Part shown: positions 15,593-50,236 of the stretch, in pieces | Layout of the letters: each line of letters starts with the position of its first letter | Position numbering within the stretch: the first letter of the stretch is position 1 | DNA from: Eledone cirrhosa | Lineage: Eukaryota | Direction: 5' to 3' | NCBI GenBank assembly: GCA_964016885.1 | Contig: OZ024742.1 | Span: forward strand, 69,440,001-69,504,000 | Length of the DNA stretch: 64,000 bases | The notes under the pieces: generated by a model | Databases searched by the model: none | What the model was told of the DNA's origin: nothing | Seen by the model: the letters and a program-made list of their open reading frames with translations, nothing else | Program-made: the position numbers and the translations under genes

Positions 15593-15694
15593 TCAGACAA
15601 CCGTATCATTCGTTATATTATTCGGGTTGCTGGGTATAGCTAATGCACTGGTCTGGAACACAATTACACCATAGGACAAGAGTGTCCCACCTAT
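15593..15694 (-). CDS. Gustatory-receptor-like gene GRL1, exon 4 (TM7b + C-terminal tail)
   Basis: Acceptor tcttctatttaactag, then IGGTLLSYGVIVFQTSALAIPSNPNNITNDTVV*. Variant of the GR/OR TYxxxxxQF signature; phase 0. Confidence 0.88.
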   Translation of the reverse strand: MGGTLLSYGVIVFQTSALAIPSNPNNITNDTVV

Positions 15695-16404
15695 CTAGTT
15701 AAATAGAAGAAATAAGAGCGGTGAGGCAAGATCAGTTTGAAATATTTAACAGGGTCATTTTATATTAAATTTGATAATATATAACAAATATTTAATACTC
15801 AATATAAATTTTTTCGTAAGTCTAGATTATTTAGTGTTATGTGTTAATATTATATTTTTTTTATTTTTAAGCAGGTTGGCGTAAGAGGGAGTGTCAATAG
15901 CTGCCTTCAGAGGCCTTCTCTGACCAGAGAGATCGGTTGTTATCCACGTTGCAAAGTTTCTGTAAGCAACTCTATACAGATTAGTCTAGGATGATTTTTC
16001 TGGATGCGGTCTAGGATACGCGTGTGAGTAACAGCAGTACTTCATTGTGGATCTCCCTAGGGTCGACAGACGGATAAAGCTCATAGTCGAGTAGTTTCAA
16101 GAAAAGACTCACCCATCTAATACGGCCTAAACCTTTGCAGCCTATTCCTTCCTGATAGAGTAGAGGGGTGAGGAATCGACTTAAGTACTGGACTGGAAAA
16201 GCGAAGTGGCAAAGCTGACCGCGGAAAATACATTGGAAAGCATTCTATACGACATTTTAACGGCTTTGCCAATTTTCTGCTTCATAATCTGAATACTAAA
16301 TTAGAAAAAAATATTTTCGTGAGTCTATAAAGCTATTTCAATATGTATTATTCCAGTGGATTTATATAAATAACTATTTCAAAATTATCAGAATTGCTTC
16401 TTAC

Positions 16405-16491
16405 CATAAGTATTGCTGAACTGTCGATATTGAACAAATTAGCTGCAGTGAGACAGCCTGGGTTAGAGACTCTTGCGTAGAATAGAGAAAT
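16405..16491 (-). CDS. GRL1 exon 3 (intracellular loop 3 / TM7a)
   Basis: tttccag, then ISLFYARVSNPGCLTAANLFNIDSSAILM, then gtaag. 87 bp, phase 0-0; matches the GR LTA.GLF.ID motif. Confidence 0.9.
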
Positions 16492-16581
16492 CTGGAAATA
16501 TCAAATAGAATATAGAATAAAAGAAACGGAATTAAGAATAAATATATACATACATATATACATACACATATATATTTATTT

Positions 16582-16675
16582 ACACACACACACACACACA
16601 CACACACACACACACACACACACACACACACACACACACACGTATATATATATATATATATATATATATATATAT
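16582..16675. repeat. Compound (CA)n(TA)n microsatellite in GRL1 intron 2
   Basis: Direct reading. Confidence 0.95.
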
Positions 16676-46965: not shown

Positions 46966-49390
46966 ACATGGACAACTATACTAGCAATGGCAATAATAAC
47001 AATAATAACACATTCACAGCTGCAAACGCAGCTGAATTAGTCAACATGGACTTACAAAAAGGATGATAATTTCGTACAAGCGATCAGACTAATTAAGCGG
47101 CAAAACATAAGTGCCAAAATAACCGCCCCGCCCGAGGTGTTGCGGCAAGAAAAACGACCCTAAGGGAGATACTAATTCCTATAAAAAGGAAACTGCAAGA
47201 AGTGGTGTCACAAAGTGAGTACCAAAGCGCACAGGAGGATATTATACCGATTCTAGGGCACATAGCTGGAGTAATGCAATACGCGGGCATTTCAGAAAGG
47301 CAAATCTCAGACCGTTAGGTATTCTGTGGTCCCCATTCGGACAGACCAATTTTTACCATTCCTTTCGTACAACGGAGGAAGAACAGTAAGGATCAAGATC
47401 ACGGGTATCCCATCAAGATTGGACTTCTGGTGTATTCTGACCTGTGTAGACGAGAAGGTAGTGACATGTTTGTGCGGAGAGACAAGCCACCAGAGAGTGT
47501 TTTGCTCTCCACAGAAGACGGAAAACCACAGGGTACCCTTGCTGCAACACCAGGACCCGAAAGTCACAACAATTCCAACAGGGAACAACAATAGCGAAAG
47601 CAACGTTGGTACCAGCAGCAACATCAACAGCAACATCAACAGCAACATCATCAGGTTCAGCAGCTATACCAACAGCAAAATCAACAAGTGCAGCAGCAGA
47701 AGCAGCTATACCAGAAACAAGAGCAACACCAACATCACCTCAACTGTAGCAGCATAAACACTACCACAACTACCAACAACAGACAACGTGAAAAACACTC
47801 AAATTGTCATCTATCTCCGCCTCTCTTTCTCACTTCCTTCTCTCAACATAAACACACATAGACATTCATACAAACACACTCTCACCCATATCCTGGACAT
47901 ATCCCGCAGACACCGGTACCTCATTACTCGATGTGAATATGAGAGTAAACCCCAAAATCTCCAAAAAGAAACACAAAAATGTTTTTGCCTCATACAAAAA
48001 CACACTCCACAAAACAGAAAATATATATAACAAACACACACACATCTACAACAACAAACCCACAAACCCCATTACCATCAAAGCAACCATCGCTACCACC
48101 ACCAGCACTAATAAAATTAACCATAAAAAGAAAAGAAAACAAAAACACAACACAAAAACAAGCAACCACAGAGACACCAAAATTCATGCTAGTGAGGAAG
48201 CTTAACGAAAAATTGATAGCCCTCATAGCACGAAGTAAAGATAATAAGATTTTCGGCAAAGGCATGTTTAAAGTGCCACAAAATTTCAAGACTGTGTGCA
48301 TGTCTCTTGAAACTTACAAAAACATTATTGGGAGCTTCCCCCACTACGAAGTAAACCCTAATGCAAAAGCAACGGGTAAAATTTCAAGGGAACTTTTAAA
48401 TGTGGAAGCCATCAGCGCGACGAGGATTTCTGACGCGCGCACCCTTAGTCGACCTAGAATGGGAGCGGTGTGTAAGTTATGTTTAAGAAAGACCTTGATT
48501 TCGAGGTACGGATAATCTTTTTTAAGCCGAACGACAAGTTGGTGGTCCTGGATACGAGCAACTGCGAAGATGTTGTATATCGACTGTGCCCCTAGTGGGG
48601 TACGACGGTCGGAATCTTCAGACGTTTGGAAGACTTTCTAGGAACGCCACGCCTTTTACTGTTAGCGGGGGACTAGAACGGCATCTTAGACGCACGCTGT
48701 GTCTGTGTAGGGGAAGCTAATAGAAGAGGGGTGAAACAAAAGCCTCAAGAATCTGATCAGCCAGTTCCAACTGTCTGACAGGTACCGACTAGATTCTTCG
48801 CCAATGTGAACCTGGTCCAATCGTATAAAGTCATCTAGATCGTATTTAGACAGGTTTTTAATTAGTTGGTATCCACAATTTCAGACCACAAGTTCGTGTC
48901 CCAGTTACAGGAAGCTTTATACTTCATTCCAGGCACTAAAGCCTACAGAGACCGGATTACCATATTGATTAAGTACTGGTTGACAGGGGCAGTTGTCAAC
49001 AACAGGTTCTCAAGAGAACAATTAGAGTAGAAGATTTAGTAAGCAAGTGGCAATAGAAACAAATAGAACGGAAGTGGAGTTAGTAGCTAAATTAGAAGAG
49101 GCGATTAGGATTGGCATTGTAACCACGGGCTAGCTGCAGGAATGGCCCTAGACCATTTCATCAAAGCAAAACATGAAGGTTGCATAGTGAAATATATGGT
49201 GCCTGTTAGAGGAAACAAAGGAATGAAAGCTGTTCTATGGGCCCGAGTGTCAGAGACGCAATGTTGTAGCATAGCCACATTTCGGTCTTTGACAAATCTG
49301 GACGAGAGCGTGTTGTTCGATTCCAGACAGATGTGTGCAGCATTTCATCAGTACCTTTTACAACTGATCAGTGCAAGCGGTCGGAGACGG
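46966..49390 (+). mobile_element. Highly degenerate Tx1-type LINE (divergent ORF1 + endonuclease region)
   Basis: CLCGETSHQRVFC knuckle remnant, NVEAISATRISDA, SSRSYLDR, ALDHFIKAKHEGCIV. Confidence 0.75.
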
Positions 49391-49750
49391 TAGCGTATTA
49401 CAGTTTCTCCCTTAACGGCTTTTCGCAGCATTCCGCATCAGTCGTCTTTGACACTCGGGCCCATAGAACAGCTTTCATTCCTTTGTTTCCTCTAACAGGC
49501 ACCATATATCTCACTATGCAACCTTCATGTTTTGCTTTGATGAAATGGTCTAGGGCCATTCCCGCAGCTAGCCCGTGGTTACAATGCCACTCCTAATCGC
49601 CTCTTCTAATTTAGCTACTAACTCCACTTCCGTTCTATTTGTTCCTATCGCCACTTCCTTACTAAATGTTCTATTCTAATTGTTCTCTTGAGAACTTCCC
49701 ATCACCTGTTGTTGACAACTGCCTCTGTCAACCAGTATTTAATCAATATA
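48961..49750. repeat. About 300-bp inverted duplication of LINE sequence
   Basis: 48961-49258 recurs as a near-identical reverse complement at about 49443-49750. Confidence 0.9.
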
Positions 49751-49989
49751 TGGGGCGTAGTAACGCTGTTGAGGAAGACGAGAACAAGGGGACGTTATAA
49801 ATAATTTCCAGCCCATAACTCTACTCAACACAGTTTAACCTTTTGGTTAAGGTGCTTCACGTGCGCGCGCGCGCGCGTGTGTGTGTGTGTGTGTGTGTGT
49901 GTATGTGTGTGTGCTTTTGTGTGTGTCTGTGTGTTTGTGTATGTGCGATTATGTGTATGCGTATATGTGTGTATACCTGACGTTGTGAC

Positions 49990-50236
49990 CTCCGATACTT
50001 ATCAACTCCAGATATGAATACGAACAGAAGAGCTACAGCAATACAACTTAAATGTTTCTCTATTAATTTTCTTCCCAGCATAATATTGAAGATCTTCATA
50101 ATATGCTTCAAAACTTCCACATGATAGAAGAGCAAGAACGTTAGATGATCAATTTCTGTGTATTTCGCCCTATCATCGAATGTAGCCGTAATAGATTTAA
50201 AACAAGAAATATTTAAAAACTTTAAATAAATCCTGT
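49990..50236 (-). pseudogene. GRL3: fragment of a third GRL first exon
   Basis: QDLFKVFKY..NLLRL..LFYHVEVLKHIMKIFNIMLGRKLIEK aligns to GRL1 QKLFKVFQ..NLMRL..FFYFVEILNHGMKFIINNVFGRRLIKK. Cut off by LINE copy B. Confidence 0.75.

Follow-up and report, generated by a model that had tools for sequence, protein, structure and literature searches.

The window analysed here is a 64,000-nt stretch of the genome of Eledone cirrhosa (contig OZ024742.1, called C3 below; positions 69,440,001 to 69,504,000), AT-rich animal DNA with no N in it and crowded by transposons, and it carries a gustatory-receptor-like (GRL, 7tm_7) gene together with further copies of that gene's large first exon. Both at this locus and at a second one on contig C13 the large exons outnumber the sets of small constant exons, and it is likely that the tandem large exons, which encode helices S1-S6 with the predicted ligand pocket, are spliced singly onto shared exons encoding S7, so that each locus would specify a whole family of predicted ligand-gated channels. 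Directly observed were the exon anatomy, the excess of large exons over constant sets, the intact frames and donors of upstream exons and the seven-transmembrane (7TM) ion-channel fold of a homologue. The window would hold the 3' end of its locus; by itself it has one gene and two partial copies that are dead, and the C13 array is a stronger case than the window's own locus.

The window gene and its upstream copies

One complete four-exon GRL gene lies on the minus strand at 22290-15593, and all three of its introns are in phase 0 with GT-AG ends. GRLs are marked by three such introns close to the 3' end and by a motif in the seventh transmembrane helix (TM7), according to the available parts of two reports (PMC7746228, PMC5203786). 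The large exon A1 (copy 1, the proximal variable exon; 21208..22290, minus strand) encodes 361 aa with the GRL helices S0-S6 and ends in the phase-0 donor GTACGT, behind which a donor-proximal intron motif kept among the large exons, or cassettes, is found at 21187..21207 (minus strand). The three small exons follow on the same strand: constant exon 2 (16730..16801; 24 aa), placed by the homologue model at the cytosolic end of S6 and the start of S7a and 58% identical to its counterpart in Octopus bimaculoides; constant exon 3 (16405..16491; 29 aa), with S7a and the hairpin and 79% identical; and constant exon 4 (15593..15694; 33 aa and the stop), with the pore helix S7b and 83% identical across 18 aa. 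Neither tblastn nor profile hidden Markov models (HMMs) gave a second set of small exons in the window. Four sequencing runs that match 14500-23500 are contigs from at most two samples of one study and cover the introns; there is no exon-exon joint among the matches listed, and these have no bearing on expression. Immediately upstream of A1, at 22400-23050, is a long CAC/ACT-rich repeat of 9/12 nt, and shorter similar tracts are found before the exons B, F and G described below. Within intron 1 an inverted repeat at 19249-20824 (120-nt arms) flanks a 143-aa open reading frame (ORF) without Pfam match, possibly the remnant of a DNA transposon.

A1 alone matched PF08395 (7tm_7) with an E value of 8e-5 and 22.5 bits, which is under the cut-off of 26.6, and PF02949 with an E value of 7e-6. 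Full-length homologues scored 48-58 bits against PF08395 and the cassettes C1 and E1 and those of C13 scored 35-47 bits, while exon F gave no match in hmmscan; a sequence search of PDB returned designed coiled coils only. The structural model was that of the O. bimaculoides homologue X3 and not of the window's spliced protein. Built from a deeper alignment, it reached a predicted local distance difference test (pLDDT) score of 73.9 and a predicted template-modelling (pTM) score of 0.72, compared to a pLDDT of 56 in an earlier model. When compared with full-length chains of insect Orco, odorant receptors (OR) and gustatory receptors (GR) it gave Z scores of 26-31 with root-mean-square deviations (rmsd) of 3.2-4.0 over 346-367 residues, among them 8v02_A (Z 30.7, rmsd 3.2, 362 aligned) and BmGr9 (Z 27.8, rmsd 3.7, 356 aligned), and the next unrelated structure had a Z score of 8.1. 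The homologue model thus has the Orco/OR/GR fold with split S7a and S7b. The junction of exons 1 and 2 falls after residue 367 of the homologue, inside the cytosolic end of S6 (helix 337-380), and therefore exon 1 corresponds to S1-S6 and exons 2-4 to S7a and the pore helix S7b. In insect GRs the ligand pocket sits within S1-S6 and S7b is the pore helix, and the TM7 motif of the GR/GRL superfamily is TYhhhhhQF, in the part of the source available to us (PMC12635824). The motif reads SYGVIVFQT in the window and TYILVVIQT on C13, so that Y and Q are kept, the change of T to S is conservative and F is replaced by T.

Two more copies of the large exon lie upstream of A1 on the same strand. B1 (copy 2; 40928..42027, minus strand), a recently disabled cassette, is 50% identical to A1 in protein across 324 aa and 72% identical in DNA; it ends at the same donor point (40928) with its donor GTATGT retained, and 20 of the 21 bases of its donor-proximal intron motif (40907..40927, minus strand) are those of A1. 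After a 1-nt deletion near 41043 the shifted frame meets a stop at 40986-40984, and three codons ahead of the donor there is a TAA at 40936-40934. Both lesions are also present in the duplicate B2, and neither is found in a further copy, H, that is 96% identical to B1, which indicates that B was intact until recently despite a synonymous divergence (dS) of 0.7 from A. Copy 3 (50033..50237, minus strand) is a 205-nt relic of the S1-S3 region, frameshifted, without a donor and flanked by a long interspersed nuclear element (LINE) and a microsatellite; its alignment has 152 of 203 bases identical and a score of 102, compared to a maximum of 37 in 200 shuffles. Thus, the original prediction was right that the window has three same-strand copies of the large exon, a single set of small exons, and one phase-0 donor with kept intron bases shared by copies 1 and 2 in spite of their diverged proteins. 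It had also proposed the junction from 40928 to 16801, having missed that B1 is disabled by a frameshift and stops, and because of this disablement that junction is now unable to yield a full receptor. A decayed Helitron (Helitron_like_N, PIF1) at 30310-34449 on the minus strand separates copies 1 and 2.

Large exons and constant sets on C3, on C13 and in other cephalopods

Around the C3 locus 544 kb and a further 120 kb of genomic sequence were searched. Exon 1 had 14 matches genome-wide, every one on C3 at 69.07-69.88 Mb (15 pieces when copy 3 is counted), whereas exons 3 and 4 had three matches each, which makes three constant sets, and every one of these sets on C3 is directly behind an A-type exon. 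Unit 1, on the minus strand, consists of E1, D1, C1, an assembly gap, copy 3, B1, A1 and constant set 1. Unit 2, on the plus strand, is its inverted duplicate with a fragment, E2, C2, a gap, B2, A2 and constant set 2, and unit 3, on the minus strand and without a gap, consists of G (cut by a transposon), F, A3 and constant set 3. The copy H, of B type and truncated at its 5' end, lies about 390 kb away, and no constant exon was found near it in the 120 kb examined. Introns at the locus reach 18-54 kb. In 9 of the 15 large exons, 6 of them non-proximal, the frame is open for 298-300 codons from a conserved Met to the GT donor. Exon F is intact, encodes 347 aa that are 55% identical to A1, ends in GTATGT and lies 21 kb upstream of A3, and between F and A3 there are neither gaps nor small exons. 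Beyond the three sets, no match above about 5 bits was obtained on C3 with the HMMs of exons 3 and 4, and as a control of sensitivity, HMMs built without C13 sequences still detected the distant exons 3 and 4 of C13 (25 and 15 bits). The exon-2 HMM failed to rank the true exon 2 above noise, and the conclusions on small exons were drawn from exons 3 and 4 together with tblastn and blastn. The expectation that more variable exons lie beyond the 64 kb was therefore borne out, and the separate searches with exon 1 and exons 2-4 that had been proposed to check it gave many matches for the former and few for the latter. The window has a single constant set, but C3 has three of them, the whole unit having been duplicated.

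Between A1 and F the nonsynonymous divergence (dN) is 0.28 and dS is 0.70, a dN/dS of 0.40, and between C1 and E1, the frames of which are both intact, dN is 0.23 and dS is 0.17. Four other cassettes, when compared with A1, give a dN/dS of 0.16-0.19 for the stretch that encodes the cytosolic anchor. In a neutral simulation that ignored indels, exons stayed free of stops in about 2% of the runs at 0.15 and in at most 0.5% at 0.25 substitutions per site. The first tree was made without B1 and B2, and H stands in for them. Across six cassettes the identity is 79% at intron positions +7 to +21 and falls to 54% and 42% further in, and the conserved bases next to the donor may have a role in splicing.

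The second locus was located by a genome scan with PF08395, and 600 kb of C13 was analysed. The array (13,020,164-13,305,326) has 12 intact large exons of 327-330 codons on the plus strand at 13.02-13.25 Mb, which are 84-97% identical to one another and all end in GTAAGT, and four broken or diverged large exons, followed by a single constant set at 13,282,184, 13,302,335 and 13,305,276; the sequence is free of N from 12,881,170 to 13,334,371. The large exon nearest to the constant set is truncated, and the set is therefore usable only through the exons farther upstream. The ratio of nonsynonymous to synonymous differences (pN/pS) among the cassettes is 1.7-2.2 overall, 3.7-4.5 in S2 and 8-10 in S6, compared to 0.45-1.0 in the loops and the anchor. 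Distinct variants amount to 167.5 nonsynonymous and 28.5 synonymous (binomial p 4e-4; p 4e-6 for S2-S6), and amino-acid changes are enriched in the helices S2-S6 relative to the loops (Fisher p 0.004), in counts for which the helix limits were set by eye, the variants are non-independent and gene conversion is outside the model. Several copies share a duplicated unit of about 1.2 kb that ends 19 nt past the donor. The C13 cassettes form a clade separate from those of C3 (support 99), and hence the cassette layout arose at least twice. No relative came up when proteins were searched with a C13 exon, which leaves the array without a cross-species check.

The C13 frames continue for 14-29 codons beyond the donor, and some of these extensions are hydrophobic, as would be seen if the upstream exons were expressed through intron read-through as truncated six-helix proteins, perhaps modifiers of the full channel. 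This we regard as extremely improbable: the donors are conserved along with the 15 bases that follow, and a protein without S7a and S7b would have no pore helix and an incomplete anchor, as far as the available part of the structural account goes (PMC12635824).

Sharing of constant exons is also seen in predicted gene models of other cephalopods, the comparison with related species that the original prediction had asked for. The closest proteins are from Octopus, with 48-52% identity across exon 1. In O. bimaculoides LOC106874590 the first parts of the models X1-X3 are 55-62% identical and the last 94 residues, which start exactly at the exon 1/2 junction, are identical; the models X1, X2, X4 and X5 of O. 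sinensis LOC118764548 have the same pattern of differing first exons and a shared C-terminus. Both genes are labelled 'uncharacterized' in RefSeq, and going by sequence they are probably the orthologous locus of the window gene. In Sepia pharaonis, CAE1281263 and CAE1281266 lie on one contig of 710,441 nt, with first exons 37% identical and an identical end of 87 residues. Unspliced genomic ORFs in the relatives read into the intron at the same junction. Three cassette lineages span the Octopus species in a clade (99/96) apart from the Eledone cassettes, and the Sepia pair groups with the Octopus lineages with modest support (89, in a quick tree). No paper in the literature searched names any of the five accessions used as queries. 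Two alternative last exons, that is two versions of S7b, occur in the O. sinensis models X1 and X3, where the pore exon may be duplicated. A gene model of Argonauta hians has a LINE endonuclease-like ORF (recognised by eye) fused to conserved constant exons 2-4; the fusion is probably a mis-annotation and still shows the constant set in Argonauta.

Two conventional GRL genes, each with its own small exons, are located just upstream of the C13 array (C13:12,971,787-13,005,380); exon 2 of the first could not be located, and in the second the TM7 motif is degenerate and reads TYVVADNPF. More GRL remnants follow downstream of the array, at 13,337,469 and 13,387,664: an exon-4-like piece with a frameshift, and an exon 3 that looks intact and for which no large exon was detected. 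The sole other close copy of the C13 exon 3, at C3:362.9 Mb, was considered as a retrocopy, a fossil of splicing, and rejected, as it is a broken, intron-containing duplicate of 2.1 kb with a stop and no donor. On the 49-kb contig C29 (12,187-44,354) one conventional GRL gene is accompanied by two near-identical large exons from an 11-kb tandem duplication, which precede one copy each of exons 2 and 3, while a search for exon 4 found none; the two large exons are possibly a nascent cassette pair. As to other elements in the window, near-identical non-LTR (long terminal repeat) retrotransposons with ORF1 and an endonuclease-reverse transcriptase ORF2 are found at 535-4916 and 56719-60142 (plus strand), with more copies near 7000-12300 and 50400-55800, and a different reverse transcriptase-bearing element lies at 59945-62862 (minus strand). 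Further inverted repeats are at 49006-49695 (253-nt arms) and 42791-43314 (112-nt arms).

Proposed cassette splicing and the alternatives to it

If the large exons are used as proposed, one at a time would be joined, past the downstream cassettes, to the acceptor of exon 2, each most likely under a promoter of its own in the manner of Gr28b, and the three shared small exons would supply the end of the anchor and the pore helix S7b. Cassettes would be born by tandem duplication of exon 1 alone, followed by divergence in the pocket helices, and would frequently die by frameshift or transposon insertion, B1 and copy 3 being such dead cassettes. The following points weigh against this proposal. 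Splicing in Eledone was read from genomic sequence and not from RNA, and the RefSeq and Sepia entries are predicted models, of which X2 of O. sinensis is a chimera of two cassettes inside exon 1, so that such models can mis-join paralogues. The cassettes C and D carry stops upstream of the conserved Met and would have short N-termini. The sole upstream copies in the window, B1 and copy 3, are both broken, and in recent C3 pairs dN/dS is 0.9-3.2, a range that is based on few changes and would be expected under relaxation no less than under positive selection.

These last two observations would be expected if only the proximal A exons were functional and all upstream large exons were orphan partial duplicates decaying as pseudogenes, and this is the present state of B1, B2, copy 3, the transposon-interrupted G and two 5'-truncated copies. 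We nevertheless consider this unlikely. F, C and E have held open frames and donors over a dS of 0.17-0.87, the anchor segment is constrained between A1 and the others, the 12 intact C13 exons have their changes enriched in S2-S6 next to a constant set that is of use to upstream exons only, and three cassette lineages persist across Octopus species. The cassette interpretation holds at the level of the locus, with C13 as a second one, and fails for the upstream copies in the window, which are pseudo-cassettes.

A further point against the proposal is that gaps at C3:69,513,055 and 69,637,208, at the same homologous spot, separate C, D and E from their presumed constant sets; because of these two gaps, sharing of a constant set by C, D and E is left open, and F is unaffected. 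The gaps, of 200 N each behind cassette C, together with identities of 95-100% between units 1 and 2 along long stretches, could mean that the assembly has collapsed constant exons or hides them in gaps, and that units 1 and 2 are two haplotypes. Such an artefact is highly improbable, given that the window, the interval from F to its constant set and the C13 array are all gap-free, and that independent annotations of three other cephalopods have equal sharing.

Finally, 11 of the 12 C13 exons have an acceptor-like site 62-64 nt before the ATG, which leaves an own promoter for each large exon unproven. The same cassette output could come from a single upstream promoter with a shared non-coding leader, the large exons being mutually exclusive internal exons; the AG sites score 6-8, within the range of true acceptors (-0.6 to 12.5, leave-one-out), and several C13 copies have just about 150 nt of upstream sequence in common. 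The scores are, however, under the 90th percentile of the background (8.5), the C13 copies are recent duplicates and so amount to one observation, and the isoforms of fly Gr28b have distinct start sites in the available part of PMC12635824. We hold this form of control to be very unlikely, and splicing of large exons, one at a time and probably from promoters of their own, onto the shared S7 exons is the reading we retain as likely.

Known systems and what the loci would mean

The known architecture nearest to the window's locus is Drosophila Gr39a (also Gr28b and Gr23a), in which, in the part of the source available, large exons for six transmembrane helices, each with a GT donor, precede three small exons that are shared and encode TM7 and the C-terminus, and cassettes are gained, lost and pseudogenised (PMC2204066). 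The Eledone loci are like it in exon layout and in this gain, loss and pseudogenisation, with same-strand TM1-6 exons that have phase-0 GT donors and with three shared small exons that are gap-free for F/A3 and C13. They are unlike it in belonging to a mollusc and, at C3, in the triplication of the whole unit and in introns of 18-54 kb. The C13 layout is nearly that of Gr60a-m of Blattella germanica, where several long first exons join three shared short final exons to give up to 13 intact receptors, beside 25 other alternatively spliced Gr genes, as given in the part of that report available (PMC6175461). The Blattella genes are insect bitter-type receptors often supported by RNA sequencing, whereas the Eledone loci, in this also unlike Gr39a, are known from genomic sequence alone. 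The Octopus genes have the same junction and shared C-terminus, with cassettes in a clade of their own. The Eledone genes are like non-arthropod GRLs and 7TM ion channels (PF08395) in Pfam match, fold, positions of the TM7 motif and the three 3' phase-0 introns; the non-arthropod GRLs so far described, in the available part of PMC6150509 without identified chemosensory function, are unlike them in that the Eledone genes come in cassette arrays where amino-acid changes are in excess.

The vertebrate clustered protocadherin and UGT1 loci likewise join variable first exons to constant ones that are shared, a similar exon logic in unrelated proteins. No molluscan description was found in a literature search for GRLs of cephalopods or molluscs or for this architecture, although subscription papers and supplements outside its scope could mention one, and the parts available of PMC6408891 and PMC11682238 held nothing relevant. 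What we describe is a known architecture of insects in a new phylum, and the surprise is limited in that the mechanism is well known in insects and the Octopus isoforms had already been modelled by automatic annotation. In trees of cephalopods only, cassettes cluster by locus and lineage, from which it follows that their duplications are independent of the fly's.

Cassette arrays with changes concentrated in the predicted pocket helices resemble chemoreceptor evolution, and only from the family and this pattern of selection do we infer a chemosensory role of the cassette GRLs. It is quite possible, and we put it forward tentatively, that coleoids have repeatedly built a hidden repertoire of GRL chemoreceptors by cassette splicing, independently of insects, at two or more unrelated loci in Eledone, one of which would have 12 intact, positively selected exons for the pocket on a single pore, and with a locus perhaps shared with cuttlefish. 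Were this so, gene counts would miss the repertoire, one locus being annotated as one gene, and coleoids would have another ionotropic chemosensory system in addition to the chemotactile receptors derived from acetylcholine receptors. The findings suggest that an ancient phase-0 intron after TM6 makes the superfamily prone to arrive at this way of splicing in separate phyla. C13, where 12 sensing modules that are 84-97% identical would be combined with the same pore, is a natural experiment, and the question whether molluscan GRLs are ligand-gated chemoreceptors becomes directly testable.

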